From Actinomycetota bacterium (lineage in GTDB: Bacteria > Actinomycetota > Thermoleophilia > RBG-16-64-13), in assembly GCA_016278725.1 (NCBI GenBank), contig JADQBG010000010.1, positions 35,984 to 99,983 of the forward strand: a stretch of 64,000 bases of DNA. Reading direction: 5' to 3'. Of the stretch, positions 43,610 to 63,652 are shown piece by piece. The position numbers were made by a program, and so were the translations under genes. The notes under the pieces were generated by a model. The model did no database searches. It saw nothing but the letters and a program-made list of their open reading frames with translations, and had not been told where the DNA came from. The first letter of the stretch is position 1. The number at the start of each line of letters is the position of its first letter.

Positions 43610-45231
43610 TCCTGCCGCTCTAGCTCTTCTCGAACGGTCTCGTACTCGAGTTGGTGCAGATCGATTCCCTCCGCCGCCGCTGCTGCGACCATGACTCCCG
43701 CCGCGCCCCCGAGGTTGGCCCTGACCGGTTCCATGCGTACCGCAGAGCAGATCGCGCTCTCGTCGGCAGAGATAGCCGTAGGAACCACCAGGTAGGGATG
43801 CTCCCGCGGCAACAGCGCGCCCATGGGCACGAAGACCTCCGCCGCCTCTGAATCCTGCAAGGAGCCCAGCGAAAGGTCGTGGCGGTCGTAGCGAGCATAG
43901 ACTCCGTGGGCCACGGGCTGGTCCACCACTTCGCCGTCGATGTCTGCTCCCGTGTAGAAGTCGAGCCCGCGGAAACGAACGCCATCGCGCACGTACGGCC
44001 TCGAGGGAATGTTGACCACACCGATCTCGGGGTATCCGTGCTCCTGAAGGTAGCGCATCTTGTCGAGCACGTAGCTCAACATCACTTCGCGTAGCTCCGG
44101 GCGCTTCTCCGGGAAGAGCACCCAGTCGAAGCTTGCCCGGGGGCCGGGATAGTCGGACCACATCTCGTTGAGTTCCCGCTTGCCGTGAGGCAGCACGTGA
44201 CGCAGGGTCCAGCTCGTGGCAAAGCCCTCACGATGGTGGTCGGCGAACTCGAAAGAGGGACCGTACGTCGATTTGCTGTACCAGTCGTGCTCGAAATTGG
44301 CCAGCGAAGGCGCCTCGTCCTCGTACACCTGAAGCGTTAGAAGAAAGCTGAAGCGCTGCGGTGCGGTGACAAACTCGTTCTCCGGAGAGGGCGGGGCCGG
44401 ATGAGGGCCGGTACGCTGGTTGTAGAGCTCGTCGCCCTTGCCCAGCATGTAAGACGCCCCGAGCAGCCGCCCCAAATCGCCCTCGGGCGATGCGTCGACG
44501 AAATACTCCGTATTGATACGCACCACGTTCCCGTCCGGCTCCTCCAGGACGGCGTAGCGCGGCCCCTGCCCGTCGGCGCCTTCGGCGGCCCGCAGTTCCC
44601 CGCTCAACCACTCCACGTCGGGATGCCCTTCGATAAACGATAGGAGAACTTCCCGCGCCACCTCGGGCTCGTAGCGGATCCGCCCGTCGAGCACGGGGTG
44701 CAAACCCTGGGCCTCGTAGGTGGCGATCACCTTCTTGCGGAACTCACCGTAAAAGCCGGACATGCCTTGCTTGCCATAGCGGTCCTCGACGGAGAGGCCT
44801 TGGGCCAGAGGGCTTTCCAGCAGGTGCTCGCCCGACACAATTGCCACCCGCAGATGCCGGCCAAGGCCTTCCTCGGCCAACTGGAGCGCCCGCACCGCGC
44901 CGATCCCTGCAGTGGTCGTGCCGTAAATCAAAACATCGACCTCGCGCACCCCCACCGATTCACGCGCGGGCGCGGGTGCGGGTGCGGATCCTTCTGGCGA
45001 CTCCGACCGCAGACCCTCGGCAAAAGCCCGGTCCCCGGTGGGGCGCGCCTGTGCTTCGGCCGGGGAGGCCGTTTCCGGCAGGGAGTTCTTCCCCCAGGGG
45101 AGCACCTCGCCCAGCGGTAAAGAAATGAGGGAAGAATCGAACAGCAACCAGACGGCACCCAAGAGGATTGATGCTCCAACCAAGAGCGCAGCAAGCCGCC
45201 TGTACAATCGAGTTCGCCGGGAAAGGACCAA
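43594..45231 (-). CDS. FAD-dependent oxidoreductase (FAD_oxidored family, pfam12831-like) with N-terminal signal anchor
   Basis: Dinucleotide-binding motif VDVLIYGTTTAGIGAV. Family-typical length ~540 aa. Confidence 0.6.
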   Translation of the reverse strand: MVLSRRTRLYRRLAALLVGASILLGAVWLLFDSSLISLPLGEVLPWGKNSLPETASPAEAQARPTGDRAFAEGLRSESPEGSAPAPAPARESVGVREVDVLIYGTTTAGIGAVRALQLAEEGLGRHLRVAIVSGEHLLESPLAQGLSVEDRYGKQGMSGFYGEFRKKVIATYEAQGLHPVLDGRIRYEPEVAREVLLSFIEGHPDVEWLSGELRAAEGADGQGPRYAVLEEPDGNVVRINTEYFVDASPEGDLGRLLGASYMLGKGDELYNQRTGPHPAPPSPENEFVTAPQRFSFLLTLQVYEDEAPSLANFEHDWYSKSTYGPSFEFADHHREGFATSWTLRHVLPHGKRELNEMWSDYPGPRASFDWVLFPEKRPELREVMLSYVLDKMRYLQEHGYPEIGVVNIPSRPYVRDGVRFRGLDFYTGADIDGEVVDQPVAHGVYARYDRHDLSLGSLQDSEAAEVFVPMGALLPREHPYLVVPTAISADESAICSAVRMEPVRANLGGAAGVMVAAAAAEGIDLHQLEYETVREELERQDYELN

Positions 45232-45392
45232 GCCGACTACTCCCCCATGGATTGGAACACGGCCCAGAGAATACCGGTTCGAGCCGGGTTATGCAGCGTT
45301 CTGGACGAACCCCCGTCAGCCGGCGACTTCCGTAACGCTATCGTTACTCACGCGTTCGGCGGGCGTAACCGACTGGCGCCACACTCGCTCTT

Positions 45393-45470
45393 GGAGCGTT
45401 CGATAGCGGCCCCCTCCGCGTACGGCGGGATCTTCCTTCTCCGCAGGCCGTGGCTCGAACGCTCCGCTTT
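45393..45470 (+). repeat. Long hairpin: 11-bp perfect inverted repeat GGAGCGTTCGA ... TCGAACGCTCC separated by 51 nt, followed by GCUUUUCG
   Basis: Arms at 45393-45403 and 45455-45465. The interior contains CCGCGTACGGCGG. Located in the divergent region between the FAD oxidoreductase gene and the GerMN lipoprotein gene. Confidence 0.5.
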
Positions 45471-45583
45471 TCGTGAGTGCGGCGGAAGAAAGCGAGGGAG
45501 CGATGTACACGGCCGGTCGCAGGGGCTGGGAAGAGTACGTCAAGATAGAGGCCGAACTGGAAGAAAGGCTGTCCGATCCTCCC

Positions 45584-46576
45584 ATGCGCTCAACGCGTCA
45601 GGCTGCGGGCCGGGCCAGAATCATCCGGCGTCGCTGGGGAGCTTTGCTTTTCGTCCTCGGCTTGGCCGTTTCGATGGGCTTCCTGCTTGCCCTTACCGGA
45701 TGCGGTTACGGCGACGACGTCCAGGAGGCGGGCCCGGTGACCAGCGCCGAGAACACCGAGGGTTCCGGCGAGACTCAGACCACTCAGAGCACCGAGGCTC
45801 CCGGGCAGAACACCACAACCACCGGGGGCGATCCCAATAAGCCCGAGAGTCTCACGCTATCCGTCTACTTCCCGGTCACCGGTGAGCACATAGCCGCCGC
45901 GCACCGGACGGTGCCTTACACGATAGAGACCGCCGAAGCCGCCGTGGGCGAACTGCTTGGAGGGCCCACCGAATTCGAGAGGGAGACGGCGAAGATGGCG
46001 ACCGCCATCCCCAAGGGCACCACTCTCCTGGGAATCAACATCTCCAACGGCACCGCCACGGTCGACCTCTCCAAGGAGTTCGCCTCGGGTGGGGGAACGA
46101 CCTCGATGACCCTGCGCCTCGCCCAGGTAGTCTTCACCCTCACTCAATTCCCCAGTATCGAAAACGTGCAGTTCATGCTCGACGGTGAAGCGGTCACCGT
46201 GTTCGGGGGGGAAGGCATACTTCTCGAGGAACCCGTCGGGCGGGATTACTTCGAGGACGTGACGCCGGCCATCTTGGTGGAAGACCCGGCGGTGGGAGAT
46301 GTGGTTAGCAGCCCCGTGCGCGTCAGCGGCAGCGCCAACGTCTTCGAAGCCACCTTCCAGATGACGCTGACCGATGGCGACGGCCTCATTCTCGCGGAGC
46401 GTACGGTCACGGCGACGAGCGGCACCGGAACCCGGGGCACCTTCGACGTCACTCTCGATTACGAGAACGCGAAGCCCGGTCTGGGTAGCCTCATCGTGTA
46501 CACCTACAGCGCCAAGGACGGTTCCCAGGAGAACCTGCAGGAGATTCCGCTGAGGTTCGAGCCGCCGGCATCGTGA
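45584..46576 (+). CDS. GerMN + Gmad2 (Ig-like) domain lipoprotein
   Basis: Lipobox LALTGC. GerMN domain (LTLSVYFPVTGEHIAAAHRTVPYTIETAEAAVGELLGGP ... TTLLGINISNGTATVDLSKEF) and a C-terminal Gmad2-like beta domain. Start chosen at MRSTRQ (45584); an upstream ATG at 45473 is possible. Confidence 0.65.
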   Translation: MRSTRQAAGRARIIRRRWGALLFVLGLAVSMGFLLALTGCGYGDDVQEAGPVTSAENTEGSGETQTTQSTEAPGQNTTTTGGDPNKPESLTLSVYFPVTGEHIAAAHRTVPYTIETAEAAVGELLGGPTEFERETAKMATAIPKGTTLLGINISNGTATVDLSKEFASGGGTTSMTLRLAQVVFTLTQFPSIENVQFMLDGEAVTVFGGEGILLEEPVGRDYFEDVTPAILVEDPAVGDVVSSPVRVSGSANVFEATFQMTLTDGDGLILAERTVTATSGTGTRGTFDVTLDYENAKPGLGSLIVYTYSAKDGSQENLQEIPLRFEPPAS

Positions 46577-47204: not shown

Positions 47205-50081
47205 CTATACCGGCTTCCGCCCTCTCCGCCCTCCGGCTCGGTCGAACCGCTGCAAAGCCAGCACCGCCTGGAGACGGTTCCCCACCTCTAGCTTGCGATA
47301 GATCTTGTTGGCGTGGGTCTTGATGGTCTTCTCTGTGATGAAGAGCTTCGCGCCGATGACCTTGTTGGGCAGGCCGGAAGCGATCTGCCGAAGGATCTCC
47401 ATCTCCCTGGCGGTCAATGTCTCGAACCTGGCGAGCAGGGCACGATCCTCGAGCGAACTCATGGCCGTGGCTCCGGGCGCCAGGGCCCGTCGGCTCTGCG
47501 CGGGAGGGCCAAGTGCCACGTCCGTCGGATAGATCGCGCCCTCGGCCATCTCCTCGTAGTAGGCGAGATAACGCGAGGGCATGGCGAAGACAACCGCGTC
47601 CAGCAATTCGCCGCCGAGCCCCCGACGAGAACAAAGAGCGAGAATCGGAGTCGCCAGCGCGGATTCCTGGTACAGGAAGTCGAGGTAGCGGTTCTGCCGC
47701 ATCAGTTCCAGCGCCTGTCTCAGCCGATTGGCCGACCCCGCCTCGTCGCCGCGGCAGGCTTCGAGCCAACCTAGATAGAACACGGCTTGCGCCAAGGGTG
47801 CGTTCAGATTGGACTGCCGCGCCTGGCGTACCACCTCGCTCAGAAGCGTCTCCGCTTCGCGGTTTTCCTGCAGGGCAACCAGGTCGATGCCCACGGCCAC
47901 CAGGGCACGGACGCGCTCGACGATCGACAACTGATTATCCTCTATCAACTCGAGCGCAGCTCGGTGCAGTTCGAGCGCACGCTGTGGGTTGCGGTTGCGC
48001 CGGTAGATCGCTCCCTGCATGTCCATCGCCCAGACCACGGCTTCCATGTCACCGGATTGGTCACTCAACTCGCGCGCCCGCTTGATATGACCCAAAGCAG
48101 CGCGGTACTCCTTCTTGCCCATCGACACGCCGGCCAGGGTGAGAAGCACCGGCGCCTCGAGGAATGCGTAGCCTCGGGAGCGCACCAAGGCGAGGGCCGA
48201 CTCCGCATGCATCTGCGATTCGTCGTAGCGGCCCATCATGTACTCGAGCGTGCCCGCGGTGTTCAGAGCGGTTACGTAGGCGGGGCGGGAGGAGCGGGCG
48301 GCACGGGCAATGACCCTCTCGGTCCACTCCAGGGCCTTGGGAAGCTCCCCCCGCAGGAAGAAGAGGCGTGCCCTGAAGTTGAAGACGCGAAGTTCGTAGT
48401 CCGGTCTGGCTTCGGGCGGAGCCGTGCTCACCGCCAGTTCGAAGCTCTCCACAGCCTCGTCCCAGCGGCACTGCCCCACCATGACGTTCCCCCTGCTCGC
48501 GTAGAGTTCCGCGCGTTCGGCGGGATCAGTGACCACGCTGTCCGCTTCGTCCAACGCTTGGAGACTGTCGTCCCACCTGCCGGAGATGTATAGGCAAAAA
48601 GCCCTTCGCAGCAGGGCCGCCAGCAGGCCCTCGCGGTCCTGATTCCTCTGAAACAACTTTGCCGCGCGCTGGTACACCTTCTCGGCTTCGGTGAACTTCC
48701 CCTGCTCCTGCAGGGTCTTGGCCCGCAACATGAGAAGCCACGGCTCGTCGTTGATCGACCCCTCGGGCAACGGCTGCAGCCACTCGGCCGGCGAGTCATG
48801 CAAGGATGCGTTGAGGTCCCGCTTCGAAAGCGCACGCAGGGGATTGATGGCGCCGGCGACGTCTCCCGCCTTCAGGTACAGGGCCACTGCCGCATGCAGG
48901 CTTCCCACGCTCTCCAGGTGCACCGCCGCGCGAAGACGCTCCGAACGCATCTCGTCAGGCCCCATCGTCTCCTCCCGCATCTTTTCGGCAAAGGTGCGAA
49001 GAAGAGGATGAAGGACATAGGTCCGCTGTCCGGTCCTGGTCAACATGAACCCCGATTCCACGAGGCTGCTCAAGATTGCCTCGGCATCCGAAGCCCTCCC
49101 GGGGAAATAGGACGAGTCCTGAGGGAAGGAAACGTCGGGCAGAAACGCGGCGCTCAGGATGGCCTCGGTAGATGCCGCGTCGAGGGCGTCGAACACATTG
49201 CCCGTCAGGTAATCATTCAGACGCTCGCCTCGCCGCAGGAGGGCGGTGAACTCTTCTCTTAGCCTTTCGCGTCTCCCCCGGCTGCCCCGCAACCGGATAC
49301 CCAGGAGGGTCAAGGCGAGAGGCCAGCCTTCGGTCACCTTCCAAAGCGCCCGCGCCTCCGGCAGACCGAGCTGAACGTCCCACTTCAGGCGGGACCACTC
49401 GACCAGTTCGCCCGGTGTCAGACGGAGTTGGCGCGGTCCGATATCGACCACCCTGCCGTAGTTGCGGAGCGGTTCCAGATCGATGGGAACGGGTCCCCGG
49501 GAGGTGAGCAGGATGGTCCACGCAGACGGAACGCCCTGCAGCAGATACTCCAAGGCCGAGAGGATGGCCGGATTCTGTTCCACCTCGGTGACGTCGTCGA
49601 CGGCGAGATAGGTCGGCTCCGAGCAGCAGGCGTTGGCCTCCTCGAGGAATGCCGTGAGAACCGCCAGGATTTCTCGTTCGGCGTCCCGGCACTCCGCGAG
49701 TCTTTCCCTGAGCGGCGGCCCCAATCCGGCATGCGCCTGGCTTACGGCCGCAGCAAGCGAGCGGAGGAAGCCGGTTGCCCTGCGGTCACCCTGCTCTAGC
49801 TGAAGATAGGCCGCCGGTACCTCCGCACCGCGGAGGATGTCGACCACCAGAGCCGTCTTCCCGTAGCCGGGGCCGGCCACGATGTTGACCACACCCCCCT
49901 CCCGGACGGGCGGGAGCATGGTCAGCAGCCGGCGGCGGGCGATCAGCTGACCATGGTAGGGCATGGCTAGATGGAAAGGAGAGGTCATCTCCCCTGCGCC
50001 TACGAGCTCGCTGGTTCCTGCATGTGGTTCACTCCCCACGGCGGCTCGATCCGATCTAGCGGGATTGCTTAGCCTAGACAT
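47205..50081 (-). CDS. Large LuxR-family regulator of the STAND/MalT (LAL) type: N-terminal NTPase, TPR-like middle, C-terminal LuxR HTH
   Basis: Walker A GPGYGKTAL. ~600 aa helical/TPR-like region. C-terminal LuxR HTH (LTAREMEILRQIASGLPNKVIGAKLFITEKTIKTHANKIYRKLEV). Confidence 0.85.
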   Translation of the reverse strand: MSRLSNPARSDRAAVGSEPHAGTSELVGAGEMTSPFHLAMPYHGQLIARRRLLTMLPPVREGGVVNIVAGPGYGKTALVVDILRGAEVPAAYLQLEQGDRRATGFLRSLAAAVSQAHAGLGPPLRERLAECRDAEREILAVLTAFLEEANACCSEPTYLAVDDVTEVEQNPAILSALEYLLQGVPSAWTILLTSRGPVPIDLEPLRNYGRVVDIGPRQLRLTPGELVEWSRLKWDVQLGLPEARALWKVTEGWPLALTLLGIRLRGSRGRRERLREEFTALLRRGERLNDYLTGNVFDALDAASTEAILSAAFLPDVSFPQDSSYFPGRASDAEAILSSLVESGFMLTRTGQRTYVLHPLLRTFAEKMREETMGPDEMRSERLRAAVHLESVGSLHAAVALYLKAGDVAGAINPLRALSKRDLNASLHDSPAEWLQPLPEGSINDEPWLLMLRAKTLQEQGKFTEAEKVYQRAAKLFQRNQDREGLLAALLRRAFCLYISGRWDDSLQALDEADSVVTDPAERAELYASRGNVMVGQCRWDEAVESFELAVSTAPPEARPDYELRVFNFRARLFFLRGELPKALEWTERVIARAARSSRPAYVTALNTAGTLEYMMGRYDESQMHAESALALVRSRGYAFLEAPVLLTLAGVSMGKKEYRAALGHIKRARELSDQSGDMEAVVWAMDMQGAIYRRNRNPQRALELHRAALELIEDNQLSIVERVRALVAVGIDLVALQENREAETLLSEVVRQARQSNLNAPLAQAVFYLGWLEACRGDEAGSANRLRQALELMRQNRYLDFLYQESALATPILALCSRRGLGGELLDAVVFAMPSRYLAYYEEMAEGAIYPTDVALGPPAQSRRALAPGATAMSSLEDRALLARFETLTAREMEILRQIASGLPNKVIGAKLFITEKTIKTHANKIYRKLEVGNRLQAVLALQRFDRAGGRRGRKPV

Positions 50082-51076: not shown

Positions 51077-51391
51077 ATGCCGGAAAACCGAGTGGAGCCA
51101 GGGATTTGGACGCACGAGTGCCGCAAATGCCGGTCCGAGCTCATTCAGCCCACCGACTGGCACCGCCACGACGAGCTGTGGAACGTGCGGATCGAGTGCC
51201 CGGAGTGCGGAGCCGTATACGAAGCTCTGCTCGATCAGAATCAGGTGACCGACCTGTCTTATGAGATGGAGGCCGGCTTTCACGCCTTGCTCGAGCAACT
51301 CGACGAGATCGACCGGGCGCTGTTCGAGGACGAGTGCGGACTGTTCTTCGACGCTCTGAAGGCCAACAGCATCTTTCCGATGGACTTCTAG
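51077..51391 (+). CDS. Hypothetical Zn-ribbon protein (CxxC...CxxC)
   Basis: HECRKCRSEL ... IECPECGAVY four-Cys arrangement. Acidic C-terminal half. Confidence 0.45.
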   Translation: MPENRVEPGIWTHECRKCRSELIQPTDWHRHDELWNVRIECPECGAVYEALLDQNQVTDLSYEMEAGFHALLEQLDEIDRALFEDECGLFFDALKANSIFPMDF

Positions 51392-51534
51392 CCGCGGTCT
51401 GACGGGCGCTCCCCGGCTCAAACCACTCCTCGTACTCCGCGCCCCGCCGAACGGTCTTCGGATACCCCCGATGGTATACTGCCGTCCGATCCCATTCGCT
51501 GATCGTAGATAATCGCAAGGAGAGGGGCAGGACA

Positions 51535-51939
51535 GTGGAAATGGATGTCTACTTCCCGGGCGGCAAGAAGGTCTTTGCCGATTTCAAGGGTTTTACCGTT
51601 GAGACGGATCAGCCGGTACCGGCAGGAGGCGACAACTCGGCCCCAGCACCGTTCGATCTCTTCCTGGCCTCGATCGCCACCTGCGCCGGGATTTTCGTGC
51701 TGAGCTTCATGCAGGAGCGGAACATCCCCACCGACGACGCAAAGATCAGCATGCGCTGGGAATACAATCGGCAGAAGCACCTGATCGACAAGATGATCCT
51801 CGACCTGCAGCTTCCGGCGGAGTTCCCCGAGCAGTACAAGGCTGCGGTAGTGCGGGCGGCCGAGCTCTGTACGGTGAAGCGCCATCTGCACGAACCGCCA
51901 GAATTCGAGATCAACACCATCATCGGGACGAACGCCTAG
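51535..51939 (+). CDS. OsmC/Ohr-family protein
   Basis: 134 aa. SAPAPFDLFLASIATCAGIFV ... CTVKRHL, the two conserved Cys of the OsmC fold. Confidence 0.7.
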   Translation: MEMDVYFPGGKKVFADFKGFTVETDQPVPAGGDNSAPAPFDLFLASIATCAGIFVLSFMQERNIPTDDAKISMRWEYNRQKHLIDKMILDLQLPAEFPEQYKAAVVRAAELCTVKRHLHEPPEFEINTIIGTNA

Positions 51940-51952
51940 TGGCCCGGGCCGC

Positions 51953-52831
51953 TCAGTCGGCGGCGGGAAGGGTCCCCTCGATGGCCGCGGCCGCAGAAAG
52001 CAGACGCTCGGACTGAGTGGTGAGCGAGGACCCGACCGAAGAGTCATCGGCCTGACCCGCGACCAGCGCCCCAGCAACGGAGCGCAGGGAGTCGGCCGTT
52101 ACCCGGCCACCGAAGACCTCGAGGGTGACCACCAGAGGCCGGTCCAAGCGGTTCTCGACCGTCGCCCGAAACATTTCTAGCAGCCGACGTAGCCGGAGCT
52201 CCCCCCAAACGGCGGGGTCGAGGTGGTCCCGGCCGCCGCTGACGCCGTGCAGGTGGACGACCGCCAGGCGGTGCGCGTAGCGCTCGAGGTGGTCCTCCGG
52301 CCGTCCTCCGGCCAGTTCGAGGTGACCCACGTCCATCACGGTGGAAAGACCGAGTTCGTCCACCACCGGCCACACCCACTCAAACGGGAACCTCAGGTTT
52401 TCCACAGCCAGCCGTGACGGCTCCGCCACTTCGGCCAAAGCGCCCAGCGATTCAGCCAGCGCTTCCAGCCTGGCGCCGGAGAACCCGCGGTCGAGCGTAG
52501 CCTCCGCGGAAGACGATGCCGGATGGACCACATAGGCTCGGGGGCGGAGCGGCCGAGTCAGATCGATCGCCCGCAGACACCCCTCAACCGCCGGCCTTCG
52601 TTCCCCCGGCCGCGGGTGAGAGAGGTCGGCGTCCACGGGGAGGTGGACGGTCACGCCGAAATCGTTCCCAACGCAAAGATCCGCCATCTTCTCGAAGTCC
52701 TTGCGGGAGGGCAGGTTTGCGCCCTCGAAGAACATCAACTCCACGTCATCGACGAGCGGAGCCAAGAGGCGCAGATTGGGCAGGTAGTCGTCCGGCAGGA
52801 CGTAAGAAGTCGTCCCGAAGATCAAGGCCAT
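51953..52831 (-). CDS. Xylose-isomerase-like TIM-barrel (AP endonuclease family 2) protein; candidate CbiR-type cobamide-remodeling phosphodiesterase
   Basis: TIM-barrel His/Glu/Asp metal-site blocks (VVHPASS ... VENLRFPFEWV ... MDVGHLELAG ... VVHLHGVSGGRDHLDP). It overlaps by 10 nt the upstream cobS, a context characteristic of CbiR. Confidence 0.5.
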   Translation of the reverse strand: MALIFGTTSYVLPDDYLPNLRLLAPLVDDVELMFFEGANLPSRKDFEKMADLCVGNDFGVTVHLPVDADLSHPRPGERRPAVEGCLRAIDLTRPLRPRAYVVHPASSSAEATLDRGFSGARLEALAESLGALAEVAEPSRLAVENLRFPFEWVWPVVDELGLSTVMDVGHLELAGGRPEDHLERYAHRLAVVHLHGVSGGRDHLDPAVWGELRLRRLLEMFRATVENRLDRPLVVTLEVFGGRVTADSLRSVAGALVAGQADDSSVGSSLTTQSERLLSAAAAIEGTLPAAD

Positions 52832-53601
52832 AGCGAGACGGAAAGAGCGATCGCCACCAGGCAGGCGGTGCGACTAAGCTCCTGCGAAGCCCCCATGACG
52901 TCGCCGCCCACTCCGCCGAGCAGTGCAAAAGCCGTCCGCCGCAGAAAGAGCGCAACGAGGAGCATACCGGCCGCGGCGGCGGCGACCGCCGGCCAGCCGA
53001 GGACGAATCCGGTCAGGAGCGCCGGGGCGGAAACCACCAGCCCCAGCGCCAGGTGGCGCGTGGCAAACCCCTCCAGGGCCTGCTCGCCCAGCCCCGGATG
53101 AGAGGCATGGCTGTGCCAAGAAAGGATCAGAAAGGGCAGCCGGGAGAGCACTTCCGCGAGGAGCACGGCCGCCGGTAGCACGGCCGCTTGGGAAAGGTCG
53201 TCGGCTCCCACCGAGAGGCCCGCCAGGTCGCTCAACGCCGCAAACGCGACGAGGTAGGTGAAGAAGACCAAGCCGATGGCACCGACGCCGCCGTGGGGGT
53301 CGTGCATCACCTCGAGGCGCCGCCGGGCGTCTCCGTGCACCATGAGCCCGTCGCCCAGGTCGAGTAATCCGTCGGCCTGGTTGAGGCCGGTGAGGCCGAC
53401 GGCGAGCCCGAGCACGACAGCGGCGAGAACCTGCGCGGGTGCAAAATCCACCAGGAGGAGCGCCGCGAGACCGGTCGCCAAGCCCGTCATCCAGCCCACC
53501 AGGGGCACCAGGGGAAAGGCCGTGACGAAGGCCTCGAAGGTGGCCCCGCGGCCCAGGGGGAGCCTCGTCAAGAAGCCGAATAGCGGCCGCGGATCCCCGA
53601 G
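52822..53601 (-). CDS. cobS: Adenosylcobinamide-GDP ribazoletransferase (cobalamin synthase)
   Basis: FGFLTRLPLG N-terminal hallmark, multi-TM body, and conserved Asp-rich loop (NQADGLLDLGDGLMVHGD). The start codon is uncertain: no canonical start lies immediately upstream of FLTRLP, and the ORF-track N-extension to 53892 is Arg/Cys-rich and unlikely. Confidence 0.65.
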   Translation of the reverse strand, partial: LGDPRPLFGFLTRLPLGRGATFEAFVTAFPLVPLVGWMTGLATGLAALLLVDFAPAQVLAAVVLGLAVGLTGLNQADGLLDLGDGLMVHGDARRRLEVMHDPHGGVGAIGLVFFTYLVAFAALSDLAGLSVGADDLSQAAVLPAAVLLAEVLSRLPFLILSWHSHASHPGLGEQALEGFATRHLALGLVVSAPALLTGFVLGWPAVAAAAAGMLLVALFLRRTAFALLGGVGGDVMGASQELSRTACLVAIALSVSLWP

Positions 53602-53689
53602 GAGGGGACGAGCCGGGGCCGCAGCGCCGTCGTCACCTTTCGGGCCAACCTCGGATGTAGCGGGCGGACACACCGCCCTAGGGTAGCAC

Positions 53690-54151
53690 CTAGTCCGCTT
53701 TGCCCACGCTGATCCCGTGGACGTGGGCCAGCTTGCCGCCAAAATAGGCGAAGAGGCTAATCGACAGGGCCCCCATCCAGCTAAGCGCGAGCAAATGGCC
53801 GTGTCCACCATCCCGCGACCGGCGCCGCTGCCACCAGTTGATGACCCCGAGGGCGAAGGTGAAATCCATTCCCAGCAGATGGACCCAGGCAATCAGGTGC
53901 TTTCTGACCTTGTCGATCAGGAGGAAGTCGACGAGCCCGGTGGTCGCGGCCGGGGCGGCCGTGGCCACTTCCGCCCTGACCAGCCAGTCGGCAGCCCGGC
54001 GCCAAAAGGGGTCCTTGGTCAAAGCAAAGGCTGTATCGGCAAGCGCCGCCGACCAGGCAAACGCTGTGGGGAAGTTGATCATGAGCGGGTGGACGGGCGA
54101 ATCGAGAATGGTGATGCGGCTGGGTATGCTGCCGTGCTCTTGCTCTGTCAT
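53690..54151 (-). CDS. Hypothetical 4-TM membrane protein
   Basis: Hydrophobic profile with conserved His/Trp-rich loops. No confident family. Confidence 0.4.
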   Translation of the reverse strand: MTEQEHGSIPSRITILDSPVHPLMINFPTAFAWSAALADTAFALTKDPFWRRAADWLVRAEVATAAPAATTGLVDFLLIDKVRKHLIAWVHLLGMDFTFALGVINWWQRRRSRDGGHGHLLALSWMGALSISLFAYFGGKLAHVHGISVGKAD

Positions 54152-54289
54152 GATACTCGCGCTCCTCCTCCAGGCTGACCTCCGCTCGACTTCTCCCCAG
54201 GATGAAGCGAATGGAAAAGCGGCCGCTTTACGCCCGGCCGGGCGAGAAGCGGCCGCGAGGGGAGAGCGGCTTAGGCAGCGATGGTCAGG

Positions 54290-55102
54290 CTAGTGCTCCA
54301 ACCGGTAGCTTGCGGTCACGTTGGCCATCACCTCTATGTCACCCGGCCGGACGGGGGGCGGCGTCACCGAGTCGGCCGCCATCGCCCGTTCCTGGGAGAA
54401 GTCCATGGCTGTGGGGGTGCTCGAGGACTCCTCGCGCAGCGCGACTATGCGGCCGAGTCCCACGTCTGCCGCCTCCGCCAGGGTCTCCGCTTTGTTACGT
54501 GCGGCGGCGACGGCCTGTCTCAGAGCTTCCTGGATCGCGGGGCTGTTTTCCGACAGCCGCCACTCCGGGCCGCGGACGTTGTTGGCCCCCGCCTCCACGG
54601 CGGCGGCGAAGACATCGCCGACCTTACTCAAATCCTGCACCACCACCGTCACCGTGTTGCTGGCCCGATAAGTCACGGGCGGCTCCGGCTGGGTCTCGCC
54701 CTGCTGGGGCAAGGGTACGGGTTGCCTTTCGGGATAGACGGTCACGTTACTTGCCTGCAGGTTCTCATCGGGGATGCCCGCTTCTCGGAGCGCATCAAGC
54801 ACCGACTGCATCTGCTGGGAATTCTGGTCTACGGCGGTGGCCGCGTCGTCGGCCGTGGTCTCGACGCCCACATAGAGGACGGCTTCGTCCGGAGCGACCA
54901 GCACGCGGGCCTGTCCTGAGACTGTGACCACGTCCTCGGCCGGCATCCCCGACTGGTCCGACACCCCTTGAAGCGGTTGCTCCTGGTCGGAGCAGGCCAG
55001 AGCCGCCAGAGAGATCGAGAGCAACAACCCGAGCAGTACGGCCCCGCTCACCAGCGAGCCCCATCCTGCCCGTCGGTTCGCGGTATGTGCGCTGTGGTTC
55101 AT
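54290..55102 (-). CDS. SIMPL/DUF541 (YggE-like) secreted protein
   Basis: Signal peptide plus the SIMPL blocks (VLVAPDEAVLYVGVETTADDAATAVDQNSQQMQSVLDALREAGIP ... VRPGDIEVMANVTASYRL). Confidence 0.7.
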   Translation of the reverse strand: MNHSAHTANRRAGWGSLVSGAVLLGLLLSISLAALACSDQEQPLQGVSDQSGMPAEDVVTVSGQARVLVAPDEAVLYVGVETTADDAATAVDQNSQQMQSVLDALREAGIPDENLQASNVTVYPERQPVPLPQQGETQPEPPVTYRASNTVTVVVQDLSKVGDVFAAAVEAGANNVRGPEWRLSENSPAIQEALRQAVAAARNKAETLAEAADVGLGRIVALREESSSTPTAMDFSQERAMAADSVTPPPVRPGDIEVMANVTASYRLEH

Positions 55103-55195
55103 GTCGATCCGCCTTCTCGGTGGGTCAATTGTGGACTCTAAGCGGTATGACGAGGGCCGGAACGAGTTTGTTCCCGTCTGTGACAGCGAAGCCGG

Positions 55196-56068
55196 TTAGC
55201 TCCCAAGCCACTCGCCACCGTTGGGATGAAGCACCTGCCCGGTCATGTAGGAGGCATCGTCGGAAGCGAGAAAGACGTAGCTCGGAGCGATCTCTTCGGG
55301 TTGGCCGACCCGCTTCATCGGCGTCTGCTTGCCGAACTTGTCCACGTGTTCCGGGGTGAAGCTCGCCGGGATCAAGGGGGTCCAAATGGGACCGGGGGCC
55401 ACCGCATTGACGCGGATTCCCCGGCCGACCAGATGCAGCGCAAGTGACCGGGTGAAGGCCACGATCGCCCCTTTGGTGGAGGAGTAGTCGAGCAGGCCGT
55501 CTTTCCCCTTATAGGCCGTGACGGAAGCCGTGTTGATGATGGCGTCTCCCTCGGAGAGGTGGGCCAGAGCCGCCTTGACCAGGAAGAACTGCGCGAAGAT
55601 GTTGGTTCTGAAGGTCCGCTCGAGTTGCTCGCGGGTGAGGTCCTCTATCTTCTCGACCTCGTGCTGCTCCCCGGCATTGTTGACCAGGATGTTGAGTCCG
55701 CCGAGTCCGGCGGCCACTTCCTGGACCGCCCGGCGGCAGAATTCCTCGTCGCCCACGTCCCCGGCTACCAAGTGGACCCTTCCGCCTTCTTCCTCCACCA
55801 GGCGCTTGGTCTCCTCGGCGTCCTCGTGTTCCTCGAGATAGACGATGCCGACATCCGCCCCCTCTTTGGCGAATGCGATGGCCACCGGCCGGCCGATCCC
55901 GCTGTCTCCCCCCGTAATCAGAGCCACCTTGCCTCGGAGTTTGCCGCTCCCCCGGTAGGCCTCGTCGCGAGAGGCCGGTTTGGGTTTCATCGCATCTTCC
56001 TGGCCCGGCCGGCGCTCCTGAGATTGGGGCGGCGGGGTCTGGGGATGCTGTTCACCGTTACTGCCCAT
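55196..56068 (-). CDS. SDR-family oxidoreductase (YhdF/general-stress-protein-39-like)
   Basis: TGGDSGIGR cofactor motif, NNAG, and the YxxxK catalytic tetrad (YSSTKGAIVAF). Has an N-terminal Pro/Gln-rich extension. Confidence 0.85.
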   Translation of the reverse strand: MGSNGEQHPQTPPPQSQERRPGQEDAMKPKPASRDEAYRGSGKLRGKVALITGGDSGIGRPVAIAFAKEGADVGIVYLEEHEDAEETKRLVEEEGGRVHLVAGDVGDEEFCRRAVQEVAAGLGGLNILVNNAGEQHEVEKIEDLTREQLERTFRTNIFAQFFLVKAALAHLSEGDAIINTASVTAYKGKDGLLDYSSTKGAIVAFTRSLALHLVGRGIRVNAVAPGPIWTPLIPASFTPEHVDKFGKQTPMKRVGQPEEIAPSYVFLASDDASYMTGQVLHPNGGEWLGS

Positions 56069-56315
56069 TTGGGTCCTCCTGCTTCTTTCGCGCGCCGCCC
56101 GCGCGTAGCTTCGTTCGCGGGCCGCTCACGGTTATTTTCAGGGCACCGTTCTGCCCTAGCCTTAAGGGAAGTTATGTACGCACAGCGGGTTCCCACGGTG
56201 GGGCTGCGGGTATAAGCCGACTGCGAGACGGGCATGCGAGATAGGTGTGCGAGACGGGTGTCTCACTCCTCCCGTCACGACGGCCGGGCCGGGGCAGAGC
56301 CCCGCCCGGCCTTAT

Positions 56316-58235
56316 CTACTTCGGGCCAAAGAGCAGCGCGGTGCGGCCGGGGAGCCACCAGCCCTCGGAGGTAATCGGATCGGGAGTGCCCATTCCGCCG
56401 TAAGCGGGCGACTCGCTCGACCACAGGACTCCCCAGCGGGTCCCCAAAGGAGGGGCCAGCAGCGGCTCGGCGGCGGGGCGGAGAGGCCGGGAGCGTCCCA
56501 GATTGATAACCAGCAGGCGGTCCTCCCCTTCTCCGAAGCAGCGGAGGAGAAAAGCGTCGTCGGTGAGCACGGCGCCGTCGAGCCCCAGCCTGCCCTGTAG
56601 CCTGATCACGGGGTCCTCCCGGCGCAGGCGGAGCAGATCCCGATGCAGACGCAAGACACTCTCGTGCCCCTGACGCTCGTCCGGGTTCAGCTTGGATGCC
56701 GCGAAGGCTTCCTGATCGTCGGGGTTCGGCAGTATCGCCGACCCGTCGACGCCCGAGAACGGCGGGAACATGGTCATGAATCCGGCCCGTCCCTTGCGGA
56801 CGAGCGGCGCCAACTCCCGGTTGTGATCGGCAAAAAAGAAGAAAGGGCTGGTGGCGGCAAACTCCTGGCCCTGAAACAGCAAAGGCGTGCCCGGACCCAG
56901 CAACAGAAAGGCCGTCAAAGCCCTGAGGGTACCCGGGTCGGAGAGCATGTGGGCGCGGCGCCCGCCGCCGGCGTTCGCCACCTGGTCGTGATTGTCGAGG
57001 TAGGTGACGAAGCTTCTGGGAGAAAGGTCGAGCGCCGGGCTCCCGCGCCTGCCATGCGTATGGACGTAGGGTTGTCCCTGGAAGAGGTAACCGAACTTGG
57101 AGGCCGAGATCAGCTCCTGAGGGGAGCCCCGAAAATCGGTGTAGTAGGCGCCGCCGCGATCCGAGAGCGCCACTTTGGCGGCGTGATGGTAGTCATCGTT
57201 CCAGAGACCATCCACCGCCCCGGTTCCGTGCTTTGCCGGCCGCGCGAAATCCGCCTCTTGGTCCTCGTTCTCGATGAAAACCAGGATCGAGCGGTCACCG
57301 GCCCGCTCCCGAGAGCGCCGGGTGAGCTCGTGGACCACGTGCTCCTGCGAGTCGTCATAGATGGCGTGGACCGCGTCCAGACGCAGTCCGTCCAGATGGA
57401 ACTCCTCGATCCAGTAGCCCGCGTTGCTCACGAAGAACTCGCGCACGGGCCCGCTTCCCTCGCCGTCGAAGTTGATGGCGTCCCCCCACGGGGTTTGGTG
57501 GCTATCGGTGAAATAGGCCGAGGAATACGCGGGCAGGTAGTTGCCGTCGGGCCCGATGTGGTTGTAGACGACGTCCAGGATCACGCCGAGGCCCAGTGCG
57601 TGGGCCCGGTCGACGAATCGGCGAAAGTCATCGGGCCGTCCATAGAGCCGGGAGGGGGCGAAGAGGTCGACCCCGTCGTAGCCCCAGCCGTAGGCGCCGG
57701 GAAAATCGGCCACCGGCATGATCTCGAGCGCGGTGATCCCCAGTTCTCGCAGGGCGGGCAACTGCTCGGCGGCGCCGGCGAAGGTGCCCTGGGGGGTGAA
57801 GGTGCCGATATGCAACTCGTAGAGCACCTGCCCGGCGAGTTCGAGCCCTGTCCAGGAACGGTCGCTCCAGGCGAAGCCAGCAGGATCGATGACTTCGGAG
57901 GGGCCATGGGGGCCTTCCGGCTGAAAACGTGAGGCGGGGTCGGGGTAGAGGGTCTCGCCTCCGTCCAGACGGAACCGGTAGCGGTCGCCCGCGGAGGCGG
58001 GAAACCTGCCCGAGAAGTAGCCCGATCGGGAAGGATCGTCGTGCGGGCCCTCGGCTTCGAGGGGGAACTCCGATCGGCGCACGTGTTCCGGATTTCGTTC
58101 ATCGGAGCCTTCCAACACGACCGAGACCCGCGTGTGGTCGGGAGCCCACACGCGAAAGTCCACCGCGTCGGAGAAGATCTCTGCCCCGATGGGAAGACGG
58201 CGCCGGGCGGGTGGATGATCTGCTGCTGCGGTCAC
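56316..58235 (-). CDS. treZ: GH13 malto-oligosyltrehalose trehalohydrolase
   Basis: N-terminal CBM48-like domain (FRVWAP), GH13 catalytic blocks (GVILDVVYNH ... GLRLDAVH ... EN-ED ... NHD). GTG start at 58235 inferred from alignment to TreZ N-termini. Confidence 0.75.
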   Translation of the reverse strand: MTAAADHPPARRRLPIGAEIFSDAVDFRVWAPDHTRVSVVLEGSDERNPEHVRRSEFPLEAEGPHDDPSRSGYFSGRFPASAGDRYRFRLDGGETLYPDPASRFQPEGPHGPSEVIDPAGFAWSDRSWTGLELAGQVLYELHIGTFTPQGTFAGAAEQLPALRELGITALEIMPVADFPGAYGWGYDGVDLFAPSRLYGRPDDFRRFVDRAHALGLGVILDVVYNHIGPDGNYLPAYSSAYFTDSHQTPWGDAINFDGEGSGPVREFFVSNAGYWIEEFHLDGLRLDAVHAIYDDSQEHVVHELTRRSRERAGDRSILVFIENEDQEADFARPAKHGTGAVDGLWNDDYHHAAKVALSDRGGAYYTDFRGSPQELISASKFGYLFQGQPYVHTHGRRGSPALDLSPRSFVTYLDNHDQVANAGGGRRAHMLSDPGTLRALTAFLLLGPGTPLLFQGQEFAATSPFFFFADHNRELAPLVRKGRAGFMTMFPPFSGVDGSAILPNPDDQEAFAASKLNPDERQGHESVLRLHRDLLRLRREDPVIRLQGRLGLDGAVLTDDAFLLRCFGEGEDRLLVINLGRSRPLRPAAEPLLAPPLGTRWGVLWSSESPAYGGMGTPDPITSEGWWLPGRTALLFGPK

Positions 58236-58245
58236 AAGCAGTCGA

Positions 58246-58401
58246 CTAGACGACGTCCACGACCCAGAGCACGAAGAAGAGCAGCGGAACCAGCATAAGC
58301 ATGGAGGCGGGCAGGTAGCCCCAGGAAGCACTGTAAGGCCAGACCGGCAGGAGTGCGACGATCGCGACCAGGCTCAAGATCAGCACTCCCAGTACCAGCA
58401 T
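58246..58401 (-). CDS. DUF3309-family small membrane protein
   Basis: MLVLGVLILSLVAIVALLPVWPYSASWGY, the characteristic DUF3309 motif (PxWPYSxxWGY). Confidence 0.6.
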   Translation of the reverse strand: MLVLGVLILSLVAIVALLPVWPYSASWGYLPASMLMLVPLLFFVLWVVDVV

Positions 58402-58978: not shown

Positions 58979-60097
58979 TTAAGTCACGTCACCGGCCAGC
59001 ATCGGCAGCACGGTTTCTGCGTAGACTCCCTCGATGCGTTCCATGAGCGCGGCCTTGCTGACGCCGCCGTAGGAAAGCGCAGCGATGGCGGAGCCTCCCG
59101 CGCCCACGCCCTCCTTGACCAGCCCGGCCTGGTAGGGATGCATGCCGGGATAACGCGCCTTGCCGAAGTCCAGGTCGGCGGCGTAGACGGGCATATCGCC
59201 CACCTGCCGCGCCAGGTCCACCAGGTCGGCGGTGGTGTCGTCGAGAATCCAGCGGGTCGTGCCTATGCACAGGCGGTCGGCCCCGGCGGTGTCGGCAACG
59301 TTCGGGTCGGCGGCGCGCAGAGCGGCGATGACCGCGGCCACGGCGGCCATCTGGGTACCGCCCGCGAGCATCACCGGAACCTCTCGCGACGCCGCGAGGG
59401 CCATGCCGGCGACCACCGGCTGCATCGGGTCGCCCACCAGTTCGATGGCTTTGATCGGATCGGAGGCCAGGCTCCCCGGCTGGATGTCCGCCGCCTTGAA
59501 GGCACTCTCCACCGTCTGGCGCTTGAGCTCGTTGGCTCCGCCGATCATCGTCGACGACACCTTGCCGTGCGCGTCAAGGCCCAGGGCCAGCATGACCGCG
59601 AGGGCAGTCGTGGTCCCCGCGGGCACCGATTCCGCCAGCAGCAGGTAGTCGGTAACCTTGGCAAGCTGTTCACCCAGATGCCAGCCGCGCTCGTAGAGCT
59701 CCGCGGCGTTGGCCACGCTCCGTCCGGAGAGAATCGAGTCGGCCGGGCGGTCGCCAACCCGGAAGTAGGGAGTCTGCGGGGGGACTTCGCAGCCGGCATC
59801 GACGACGAAGACGGGCAGTTTGGTCAACCCCAGCGCAGCCATGGTGATGATGACGGGAGAAGGGATGCCGTCGGGGGTGGCGGCGATGCCCGGGATGGAA
59901 CGGGCACGGCCATAGAAGAGGCACTCCATGTCCGCGGGCGGCGTGTAGCGGCGCATCTCGGCCGAGGCCCCGGCTATGGACAGGCCCTCGATGGCCGCGG
60001 TCTCGCTCGAAGCGATGGTGCATACATAGGCGGGTCTCTTGGCCTCGCGCAGAGCATCCAGCATTTGGGTGGATCCCTGGGTGATGACGTCGCTCAT
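58979..60097 (-). CDS. Archaeal-type nicotinate-nucleotide--dimethylbenzimidazole phosphoribosyltransferase homologue (UPF0284/TIGR00303-like CobT)
   Basis: ~370 aa, with ESVPAGTTTALAVMLALG (cf. GMGIGNTT of CobT) and LAGGTQMAAV blocks. Embedded between cbiHJ and cobamide genes. Assignment by motif resemblance plus context. Confidence 0.5.
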   Translation of the reverse strand: MSDVITQGSTQMLDALREAKRPAYVCTIASSETAAIEGLSIAGASAEMRRYTPPADMECLFYGRARSIPGIAATPDGIPSPVIITMAALGLTKLPVFVVDAGCEVPPQTPYFRVGDRPADSILSGRSVANAAELYERGWHLGEQLAKVTDYLLLAESVPAGTTTALAVMLALGLDAHGKVSSTMIGGANELKRQTVESAFKAADIQPGSLASDPIKAIELVGDPMQPVVAGMALAASREVPVMLAGGTQMAAVAAVIAALRAADPNVADTAGADRLCIGTTRWILDDTTADLVDLARQVGDMPVYAADLDFGKARYPGMHPYQAGLVKEGVGAGGSAIAALSYGGVSKAALMERIEGVYAETVLPMLAGDVT

Positions 60098-61701
60098 CGT
60101 GTCTCCTCGTTCGGTTGCTTCTTTAGCCTTTCCAGCTCCTCGATCAAATCGCCCGCCTCGCGGTAGACCACCGCGGGCTCGGGCGGCCGGGTCAAAACGG
60201 CGAGCCGAGCGTTCGCCAGCTCTGCCGCGGTTAGCTTCTCGTCGAGACCTCCTTCGGTTCCTGATTCCTTGCTGACGAGGACGTCGCAGCCGTAGCGCTC
60301 GACGCAGGCCGCGGTGAACTCGGGGTCGAACGGGGGGTAAGCGGCGAGCAGCCGCTCCGGCGGAATGCCGGCGCCAAGGGCCGCGGCCACCGATTCAGGG
60401 CTGGCCAGCACGCGCGCGGCCGGGTCCAGCCCTCGCCCAATGAAGTCAGGAAGCAGCTTCGTGCCCACCGTCAGAAAGGGAACGTGTCCTTCCTCGAGGA
60501 GGGCCCGAATCAAGCTTTCGGTGTTGGGATAGAAGCGGACGCGCTCCGAGCCGTCGGCTCCCGAAGGCGGGCGCCATGGACGGCGGGCGGCGCGCAGCAC
60601 GCGTAGTCCTGCCCTTCCCGCGGCCTCCGCGGCGGTGGCGCTCGCCTTCTCGGCGTAGGGGTGAGTGGCGTCCACCAGAGCCAGGGGGCGCCAGCGTTCA
60701 AGCTCTCGGGCAAGGCCTTCGGCGTCCAGGCCGCCGACGTGCACTCCCCCGCCGGGAGGCGTCTCGACCTCGCGCGCGCCCAGCTCGCTTGCCACCGAGA
60801 GCCGTACCCACCAGCCGGCGGTCTCGAGCTCTTCGGTGAGGTGCCGGGCGAAGCCGGTGCCGCCCAGAACGTAGAGACGGTCGTTCGGCGCCGTCCCTGC
60901 CTCCGCGTCGGCTTCCGCGTCGGCTTCCGCGTCGGCTTCCGCGGCCGCGGCCGCGCCCGATGAGACGGATTCGGCGGGCTCCAGATACTTCTCCCGGTAA
61001 CCGCGGCGCGTGACCAAGCTGCCGCCAAGCAGTTCCGTGTTCTTGGAGCCGATCAGGACGAGGGTCCACATGTCGATTTCCTGTTCGGGGAGCTCGCCCA
61101 GCGTGCCGATCCAGGACTCCTCACCCTGGCGATAGACGTTGCGCACCCAGGCCACCCGGGTTCCGGGGCCGCGGTGGCGAAGAAAGGCGGCAAGCGCCTG
61201 CTCGAAAAGAGGGCGTCGCCGGCGGGATGAGGGATTGTACAAACAGGTGACGAGGTCGGCGGCGGCCACCGCCTCCACGCGCCGCAACACCTCTTCGCGC
61301 GGCGTCAGCAGGTCGCTCAGGCTGAGGACGGCGAAGTCGTTCATTAGGGGCGCACCTAGCCGGGCGGCGGCCGCCTGGCAGGCGGTGATCCCGGGGATCA
61401 CCTGAACCTCGGCCGTGGGGTCCAGTTCTATCAAAAGCCCGGCCATCCCGTAGATTCCGGCATCGCCGCTGGAAACCACGGCCACCCGCCGGCCCTGACG
61501 GTGAAGCTCGAGTGCGCGGCGGCACCGTTCGACCTCACGCTTCATTCCCGACCCCTCGCGGCGCTCAGGCGGTGCGAGGTCTCCAAGAAGTTCCAGATAG
61601 GGCCGGTAACCCACCACCACGTCCGCCCGCTCGAGCGCCTCTCGCGCCTCCGGCGTCAGCAACGCCAGGTCTCCCGGTCCCATCCCGACCGCCCAGATCA
61701 C
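60094..61701 (-). CDS. Fused precorrin-3B C17-methyltransferase (CbiH/CobJ) - precorrin-6A reductase (CbiJ/CobK)
   Basis: N-half: tetrapyrrole methylase blocks (VIWAVGMGPGDLALLT ... VVSSGDAGIYGMA ... VIPGITA). C-half: CbiJ blocks (LYVLGGTGFARHL ... DATHPYA ... VLVSKESG). Linker (EA)n DAEADAEADAEA encoded by 12-nt tandem repeats (60890-60950). The GTG start overlaps the cbiG stop (GTGA). Confidence 0.8.
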   Translation of the reverse strand: MIWAVGMGPGDLALLTPEAREALERADVVVGYRPYLELLGDLAPPERREGSGMKREVERCRRALELHRQGRRVAVVSSGDAGIYGMAGLLIELDPTAEVQVIPGITACQAAAARLGAPLMNDFAVLSLSDLLTPREEVLRRVEAVAAADLVTCLYNPSSRRRRPLFEQALAAFLRHRGPGTRVAWVRNVYRQGEESWIGTLGELPEQEIDMWTLVLIGSKNTELLGGSLVTRRGYREKYLEPAESVSSGAAAAAEADAEADAEADAEAGTAPNDRLYVLGGTGFARHLTEELETAGWWVRLSVASELGAREVETPPGGGVHVGGLDAEGLARELERWRPLALVDATHPYAEKASATAAEAAGRAGLRVLRAARRPWRPPSGADGSERVRFYPNTESLIRALLEEGHVPFLTVGTKLLPDFIGRGLDPAARVLASPESVAAALGAGIPPERLLAAYPPFDPEFTAACVERYGCDVLVSKESGTEGGLDEKLTAAELANARLAVLTRPPEPAVVYREAGDLIEELERLKKQPNEETR

Positions 61702-62870: not shown

Positions 62871-63652
62871 GCGTCGGCTTTCCGGTAACCGTGGGCGAAG
62901 CTGGCGTCGTAGAGCTTGGAACGGGTTTCCACCGGATGGAGCACGTCGCCCACCACGATCATGGCCGTCCGGCTGATATCCGCCGCCTGCACCTTCTCGG
63001 CGATGTCCCGAAGCTCGCCGCGCACGATGCGCTCCTCCGGCCAGGATGCGTTGGCCACCACCGCGACCGGCGTCTTCAGAGGATAGTGCTCGGCCAGATC
63101 ACGGACGACTTCCTCGATCTGGCCAACACTCAAGAAAAGGCAGATGGTGGCCCGGTGGGAGGCAAGCGAGACCAGATCCTGCCCCTCGGGGACCGGCGTG
63201 CGCCCGGCCCGGCGCGTGAGGATCACGGTCTGAGAGATCTCGGGGGCGGTCAGTTCCACTCTGAGGGCGGCGGCGCTGGCGGCGAAGGAGCTGACTCCGG
63301 GGATGACGGCGTAGGGAATCCCGAGGCCGTCCAGTTCGTCCATCTGCTCGCCGATCGCCCCGTAAATTGCGGGATCGCCCGTGTGCAGGCGCACCACCCG
63401 GCGGCCCGCCCGGTAACCCTCGGCCATCAGGGAGACGATCGCCCCGAGATCGAGTCCGGCGGAGTCGTGGATTTCGGCCGAGGCGTCGCAGTGGCCGAGT
63501 ACGTCGGGGTGGATCAGCGACCCGGCCCAGATCACTACCTGGGCTTCGGCGAGCGCCCGCGCGCCCTTCAGGGTGATGAGTTCGGGGTCGCCGGGACCGG
63601 CCCCCACGAAGAGCACGGGGGAGTTTTCGGGGACGCGGGCGGGCTCGGTCAC
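62867..63652 (-). CDS. cbiF: Cobalt-precorrin-4 C11-methyltransferase
   Basis: VLFVGAGPGDPELITLKG ... VRLHTGDPAIYGA ... VIPGVSS, tetrapyrrole methylase blocks with CbiF-type length (261 aa). Confidence 0.85.
   Translation of the reverse strand: MTEPARVPENSPVLFVGAGPGDPELITLKGARALAEAQVVIWAGSLIHPDVLGHCDASAEIHDSAGLDLGAIVSLMAEGYRAGRRVVRLHTGDPAIYGAIGEQMDELDGLGIPYAVIPGVSSFAASAAALRVELTAPEISQTVILTRRAGRTPVPEGQDLVSLASHRATICLFLSVGQIEEVVRDLAEHYPLKTPVAVVANASWPEERIVRGELRDIAEKVQAADISRTAMIVVGDVLHPVETRSKLYDASFAHGYRKADA

Follow-up and report, generated by a model that had tools for sequence, protein, structure and literature searches.

The window analyzed here (the whole 64,000-nucleotide [nt] stretch of contig JADQBG010000010.1) carries on its minus strand cobS, the gene for adenosylcobinamide-GDP ribazoletransferase, followed by a gene for a TIM-barrel protein of 292 amino acids (aa) that we assign to the CbiR family of cobamide-remodeling phosphodiesterases and refer to as cbiR. 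The two genes meet at ATGGCCTTGA, where cbiR (ATG at 52831) and cobS (TGA at 52824..52822), both on this strand, overlap by 10 nt, which confirms the 10-nt overlap claimed in an earlier, sequence-only reading of this DNA. If cbiR began instead at an alternative start, TTG 52825, the overlap with cobS would be only 4 nt long (TTGA). Inspection of the sequence before the cbiR ATG found no Shine–Dalgarno-like sequence. Given this stop/start overlap and the lack of a separate ribosome-binding site for cbiR, translation of the two genes is most likely coupled. The window has a G+C content of 65.8%, and we therefore regarded the long open reading frames (ORFs) on the opposite strand as shadow frames.

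This gene order was found to be conserved in relatives. We compared five close orthologous loci, two of which are duplicate contigs, with more distant loci from Actinomycetota. The cobS gene lay directly upstream of cbiR in three close orthologous contigs and in all eight of the more distant Actinomycetota loci, and in each of the 11 a start candidate allowed a 4-nt overlap (NTGA) with the stop of cobS, with alternatives of 10–13 nt also present. In Chlorobi, cobS is typically located 3–6 kb downstream of cbiR. Adjacency to cobS in the same orientation was the criterion of clade membership in the study that described CbiR, where 80% of the homologues adjoined cobamide genes (PMC7733943), and the cbiR of the window shows this adjacency. 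The sequence-only reading had described such barrel proteins as fused to or adjacent to cob genes. The adjacency agrees with the published description, but no fusions are described there (PMC7733943), and none was found among our best 120 homologues, which at 252–397 aa are too short for one.

Family, residues, and fold of the barrel protein

Among the NCBIfam models, the equivalog NF041277 ("cobamide remodeling phosphodiesterase CbiR") matched the barrel protein at 212.2 bits (cut-off 105; E = 8.1e-63), aligning protein residues 4–250 with model positions 2–245 of 249. We also used a profile of the proteins from nine Chlorobi genomes for which Table S1 of Mok et al. 2020 (PMC7733943) gives CbiR homologues. 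This profile matched the ORF in the window at 188 bits (E = 6e-57) and no other ORF there. The protein was 38–41% identical to the Chlorobium proteins from the Table S1 genomes, and its link to the published clade was made through these Chlorobi homologues and NF041277.

A homologue search of 5.8 billion proteins recovered identical copies from assemblies of NCBI, ENA, and Logan, and next relatives at 84, 83, and 71% identity. The wider homologue set was 40–49% identical, and several proteins from metagenome-assembled genomes (MAGs) of Thermoleophilia within it (43–49%) have already been named CbiR by NCBI. When a single genome of each species was scanned, at least 487 species were found to encode a relative; the closest among the matches listed were Actinomycetota MAGs, followed by many Chlorobiaceae. 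In an alignment of 27 sequences spanning window-like, Thermoleophilia-type, and Chlorobium-type homologues, all 27 matched NF041277. Taken together, the two profile scores and the conserved position next to cobS bear out the earlier proposal of a CbiR-type candidate, and we consider it likely (about 0.85) that this 292-aa product belongs to the CbiR family of metallo-phosphodiesterases.

The same alignment was used to examine residue conservation. All His, Asp, and Glu residues invariant in the family (H63, D67, H103, E144, D167, H170, H193, H195, D202, H203, and E238) are retained in the window protein, and the N-terminal motifs GTTSY..P....PN and VDDxEL are likewise invariant across the 27 sequences. 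The AF2 model (pLDDT 90.4, pTM 0.91) contains eight beta/alpha units plus helices at 242–262 and 267–287. Together with a match to Pfam AP_endonuc_2 (PF01261; 53.5 bits, cut-off 31.1), this (beta/alpha)8 model agrees with the xylose-isomerase-like TIM barrel named in the sequence-only reading. In the model, the invariant acidic and His residues lie at or just past the C-terminal ends of predicted strands 3 to 8, the side on which the active sites of TIM barrels are located.

An hhalign comparison with Escherichia coli endonuclease IV (Endo IV, Nfo), which reached 70% probability over 162 columns only, paired H103, E144, D167, and H170 with H109, E145, D179, and H182, residues that are ligands of the trinuclear zinc site of Endo IV. 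Outside this alignment, the HLHG....RDH motif and E238 appear to resemble H216, D229, H231, and E261 of Endo IV. The metal site of the window protein is thus probably Endo IV-like and multinuclear, judging from these residue patterns, and such a site would suit a phosphodiesterase better than the single-metal site of a ketose epimerase.

Beyond the 249-position CbiR model, the protein carries a C-terminal extension of ~40 aa (residues 251–292; 51953..52081, minus strand). Its helix at 267–287 was predicted with confidence (pLDDT ~94), and its sequence (..RLLSAA.AIE..LP) is conserved in the closest, longer homologues, including the Thermoleophilia proteins that NCBI names CbiR, but is absent from the Chlorobi-type proteins of ~266 aa.

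When the single protein was searched against PDB sequences, only chance matches were obtained. With a family profile, the best match was the uncharacterized MJ1311 (PDB 3WQO; E = 2e-9), and E. coli Nfo gave E = 0.045–0.07; no solved CbiR structure was among the PDB matches.

The 5′ end of cobS

The identity of CobS was supported by TIGR00317 (121.7 bits, cut-off 110) and Pfam CobS (PF02654; 115.4 bits, cut-off 23.2), and its frame contains the motif FGFLTRLP, of the F-x-T-R-L-P type. The ORF listed mechanically for cobS reaches 53892, and the portion above 53690 overlaps the gene for a DUF2231 membrane protein. The sequence-only reading had considered the start unclear, as no canonical initiation codon lies just upstream of FLTRLP. 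That observation is correct: ATG, GTG, and TTG are absent from the 30 codons preceding FGFLTRLP, and the sole nearer candidate is a TTG within the motif. However, a conserved GTG at 53673 lies 31 codons before the motif and 17 nt past the DUF2231 stop.

Inspection of the cobS 5′ end in orthologues, a check that had been suggested with the earlier reading, favored this GTG. Its position is kept in the orthologous loci L083, L085, and L003, whose CbiR proteins are 84, 83, and 71% identical to that of the window, respectively. In L003 the cobS frame opens only 41 codons before the motif, so that earlier starts are excluded there, and metagenome gene callers predicted a 283-aa CobS from the GTG on the identical contigs L001 and L002. 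The cobS start is therefore most likely GTG 53673, which places the true 5′ end 72 nt beyond 53601, where the sequence-only reading had ended the region.

Directly before the motif lies a stretch of the form (R)PL(L/A)(G/A)DP(R/L)(P/A)L, which reads RPLLGDPRPL in the window and is conserved in all Actinomycetota orthologues, indicating that the region upstream of FGFLTRLP is coding. The window and L003 aligned without gaps across this stretch. Among Actinomycetota, the cobS start candidates lie at variable distances before the motif, up to ~50 codons, whereas in the non-actinobacterial locus L074 the nearest in-frame starts are a GTG 6 codons and an ATG 8 codons before it. CobS thus has an N-terminal extension (31 aa in the window, 53571..53673) that is poorly conserved apart from its terminal RPLLGDPRPL stretch. 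This extension is common to all Actinomycetota orthologues examined and absent from L074, and the cobS start of the window is not anomalous.

Other starts were considered and rejected. ATG 53811, GTG 53808, and TTG 53742 are located within the DUF2231 gene, and such earlier starts would be impossible in L003; TTG 53571 sits inside the conserved FGFLTRLP motif. A cobS fusion in the Actinomycetota MAG locus L005 (4223..5956) was also rejected: within its 577-codon stop-to-stop frame, an ATG precedes the CobS motif by 25 codons, and the long frame is probably an open-frame artifact of high G+C content, an ordinary-length CobS being more likely.

The junction of the DUF2231 gene and cobS was itself conserved at the DNA level. 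Between 53640..53700 (minus strand) and 5125..5185 of L003, the segment running from the DUF2231 stop across the 17-nt spacer to about codon 8 of cobS is ~90% identical and far more conserved than the codons that follow, although the CbiR of L003 is only 71% identical. A GGGCGG-TGTGT-CCGCCC hairpin spans the GTG. The junction folded no better than shuffled sequence (z 0.1–0.3), and we therefore claim no regulatory structure at this site. A scan for promoters and terminators over 51300..55400 likewise gave nothing exceeding shuffled expectation. The DUF2231–cobS order also occurs in L001, L083, and L085, and the DUF2231 gene is a possible operon partner of cobS in close relatives only.

Gene order and cobamide genes around the pair

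A block of cobamide genes (58979..63652) begins ~5–6 kb upstream of cobS and continues toward the window end (Table 1). It comprises an archaeal-type cobT and corrin-ring genes, among them a single ORF whose halves correspond to precorrin-3B C17-methyltransferase (CbiH) and precorrin-6A reductase (CbiJ). These cbi-named genes are of the anaerobic type and suggest a de novo producer that also carries cbiR. The product of nrdJ, an adenosylcobalamin-dependent ribonucleotide reductase, is a cobamide consumer encoded in the same genome. The 0–37 kb part of the window contained unremarkable housekeeping genes and added nothing to the set of cobamide genes.

Table 1. Features of the cobS–cbiR locus and of the cobamide genes in the window
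Feature	Description	Coordinates	Strand	Evidence
cbiR	CbiR homologue, 292 aa, ATG start	51953..52831	minus	NF041277, PF01261
cobS/cbiR junction	stop/start overlap ATGGCCTTGA	52822..52831	minus	direct sequence reading
cobS	adenosylcobinamide-GDP ribazoletransferase, 283 aa, most likely start GTG 53673	52822..53673	minus	TIGR00317, Pfam CobS
DUF2231 gene	membrane protein	53690..54151	minus	Pfam PF09990, 82 bits
TreZ gene	malto-oligosyltrehalose trehalohydrolase	56316..58331	minus	581 bits
cobT	archaeal-type, NaMN-dependent phosphoribosyltransferase	58979..60097	minus	TIGR00303, 375.8 bits (cut-off 240); no Pfam match
cbiH-cbiJ	fusion, one 569-aa ORF	60094..61803	minus	TIGR01466, 278.7 bits; TIGR00715, 118.7 bits
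cbiG		61698..62870	minus	NF004466, 210 bits
cbiF		62867..63652	minus	TIGR01465, 328.9 bits
nrdJ	adenosylcobalamin-dependent ribonucleotide reductase	37845..40196	minus	NF006417, 1185.7 bits (cut-off 961)

The genes between cobT and cobS (HIT, TreZ, SDR, SIMPL, and DUF2231) are unrelated, and their order is the same in L085. The pair had been described as far from sugar-metabolism genes, which holds only in part: three unrelated genes intervene, but the TreZ gene lies ~3.5 kb upstream.

On the other side, convergent to cbiR (51077..51939, plus strand), we observed genes for an OsmC-like protein (134 aa) and a CxxC zinc-ribbon-like protein of ~104 aa, and beyond them a MalT/LuxR-type regulator of ~950–1070 aa (47205..50081, minus strand). 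The OsmC-like and CxxC genes recur with this order unchanged in L006, L008, and L013, whose CbiR proteins are only 43–49% identical. The OsmC-like gene is also present in L003, and a large downstream ORF in L006, L007, L008, and L013. This recurring neighborhood may reflect either plain synteny or a functional link. Further along, three genes in a row (41272..46576, plus strand) encode a response regulator resembling MtrA, a histidine kinase resembling MtrB, and a weakly LpqB-like protein, the counterpart of the last in a close relative having Pfam Germane and Gmad2 domains. The MtrA–MtrB–LpqB arrangement is typical of Actinomycetota, and the row thus fits the taxonomy of the nearest genomes. 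The sole Rfam match in the window was a tRNA at 5206..5278 (plus strand).

Proposed role, alternatives, and known systems

Amuc_1679 of Akkermansia muciniphila is the sole characterized member of the CbiR family and converts adenosylcobalamin (AdoCbl) or methylcobalamin (MeCbl) into cobinamide-phosphate and alpha-ribazole, cleaving cobamides whatever their lower ligand (PMC7733943). The reaction is inhibited by EDTA and requires a reductant and anoxia, and Ala mutants at many of the His, Asp, and Glu positions that are conserved lost most or all activity (PMC7733943). By analogy with Amuc_1679, the CbiR of the window would hydrolyze the phosphoribosyl bond of complete cobamides, releasing the lower ligand as its free alpha-riboside and leaving cobinamide-phosphate. 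Following the established order of the pathway, the cobinamide-phosphate would then be guanylylated by CobU or CobY, for which the window has no gene, and CobS would rejoin the activated cobinamide to the alpha-riboside phosphate of a preferred base, made by the archaeal-type CobT. With the proposed translational coupling of cobS and cbiR, the cell would make the enzyme that removes the ligand alongside the one that attaches it. CbiR may serve to swap lower ligands on scavenged cobamides in what appears to be a corrin-ring producer.

Several observations weigh against this proposal. The corrin-ring genes imply that the host can seemingly make the corrin ring itself, so that the need for remodeling is not obvious. 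Neither CobU/CobY, CbiB, nor a cobamide transporter was found in the 64-kb window, and no cobalamin riboswitch was detected there at Rfam gathering scores, nor in 52800..56400 at E ≤ 1. The fold matches, all at ≤19% identity, cannot separate CbiR from the sugar isomerases of its superfamily. In addition, Table S1 of Mok et al. 2020 lists no Actinobacteria, and the Akkermansia enzyme works only under anoxia (PMC7733943).

A CbiR-family protein could instead act on a biosynthetic intermediate, either by removing the 5′-phosphate of the CobS product in the manner of CobC or CobZ or by proof-reading mis-assembled cobamides of the cell itself, although we consider this unlikely. Such activity could account for the tight attachment of cbiR to cobS in an organism with de novo synthesis, and in keeping with it all the Actinomycetota relatives retain the cobS–cbiR overlap, the window contains corrin-ring genes, and the C-terminal extension distinguishes the window protein and its closest homologues from the shorter Chlorobi-type members. 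No CobC-type phosphatase was seen within the 64-kb window, an absence that is uninformative on the remaining genome. However, the full set of family-invariant residues is kept, the only characterized CbiR is a phosphodiesterase with a broad cobamide range, and 26 Akkermansia strains carry cbiR together with the de novo pathway (PMC7733943).

We judged it very improbable that the protein is a sugar-phosphate isomerase/epimerase or inosose dehydratase that adjoins cobS by chance. In favor of such an enzyme, Pfam assigns only the generic xylose-isomerase-like TIM-barrel family, JGI labels many of the homologues "sugar phosphate isomerase/epimerase", and the TreZ gene is 3.5 kb away. A Foldseek search of the AF2 model against PDB returned rhamnose isomerase and ketose 3-epimerases at the top, but at 14–19% identity and together with UVDE, UlaE, and Nfo, all within the AP-endonuclease-2/xylose-isomerase-like superfamily. 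Placement against sugar isomerases, proposed as a check in the sequence-only reading, favored CbiR: the next NCBIfam match after NF041277 was inosose dehydratase IolE (TIGR04379), which scored 16 bits against a cut-off of 290 over a stretch of 33 residues, compared with 212.2 bits for NF041277 (cut-off 105) and 188 bits for the Chlorobi profile. Genomes that are otherwise divergent keep the overlap with cobS, which also counts against a sugar isomerase. Moreover, H63, H103, H170, and H203 exceed the metal site of ketose epimerases, which consists of four ligands, and some of these His residues align with ligands of Endo IV. A DNA repair nuclease of the endonuclease-IV/UVDE type can be practically dismissed: it would share the superfamily, part of the metal-ligand pattern, the hhalign match, and the UVDE and Nfo fold matches, but the NCBIfam Endo IV (Nfo) model gave no match, E. 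coli Endo IV scored only 3.3 bits with the Chlorobi CbiR profile, and the gene neighborhood is related to cobamides and not to repair. On the basis of model scores, both readings are essentially excluded, and a CbiR-family phosphodiesterase remains the preferred assignment.

A 2020 publication already described the CbiR family together with the reaction and genomic signature (PMC7733943), a curated hidden Markov model (HMM) already names such proteins, and the later literature that we found on CbiR consisted only of citations of Mok et al. 2020. The additions made here are minor: an Actinomycetota (Thermoleophilia-like) branch, from a phylum not in the 2020 survey table, of a family characterized only in Akkermansia; a C-terminal helical extension common to the window protein and its closest homologues; and the strict cobS–cbiR overlap together with the CobS N-terminal extension common to the Actinomycetota orthologues. 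The invariable overlap, the C-terminal helix of CbiR, and the N-terminal extension of CobS suggest a fixed partnership of CbiR with the membrane enzyme CobS in this clade, with ligand removal and re-attachment at one site, although we regard this as speculative and rather doubtful. If true, the pairing could provide quality control or a lower-ligand switch for a de novo producer, possibly under oxic conditions, unlike the Akkermansia enzyme.

For annotation, we propose the gene name cbiR in place of "sugar phosphate isomerase/epimerase", the label given to its homologues by many metagenome pipelines, and GTG 53673 as the cobS start; apart from correct annotation, the finding matters little as it stands. 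If the enzyme is active, the mostly uncultured bacteria of this branch can exchange the lower ligand on imported B12-type cofactors, which would bear on who uses whose cobamides in communities. The tight coupling of cobS and cbiR also makes a convenient two-gene unit for heterologous tests.

Among known systems, the window protein is most directly comparable with the CbiR of A. muciniphila MucT (Amuc_1679, WP_081429195.1), as it passed NF041277 at twice the cut-off and shares the AP-endonuclease-2 TIM barrel and the His/Asp/Glu set. Its host differs in belonging to Actinomycetota, the phylum absent from Table S1 (PMC7733943). Unlike Amuc_1679, the protein has the C-terminal extension of ~40 aa with a predicted extra helix, its gene overlaps cobS stop-to-start instead of merely sharing a locus with it and has no adjacent transporter gene, and its genome carries corrin-ring synthesis genes. 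A functional parallel is found in a remodeling enzyme characterized before CbiR, namely CbiZ (adenosylcobinamide amidohydrolase), which cuts an amide bond to give cobyric acid: in both cases the lower ligand of an unsuitable cobamide is removed and CobS and its partners rebuild the molecule. CbiR nevertheless represents an unrelated family that cuts a different, phosphoribosyl bond, and because it leaves cobinamide-phosphate, the aminopropanol linker need not be rebuilt (PMC7733943).

With Endo IV (E. coli Nfo, PDB 1QTW), the protein shares the superfamily, the class of metal-dependent phosphodiester hydrolases, and four aligned ligands. The similarity is only remote, the substrate is DNA for Endo IV and a cobamide for CbiR, and the N-terminal CbiR motifs GTTSY..P....PN and VDDxEL are missing from Nfo in the hhalign alignment. 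The closest solved structure by sequence profile is MJ1311 of Methanocaldococcus jannaschii, which falls outside the CbiR model, unlike the window protein, but aligns over nearly its full length and has in common with CbiR the motifs H-x-P, VVH, E-N, D-x-G-H, and H-x-H.

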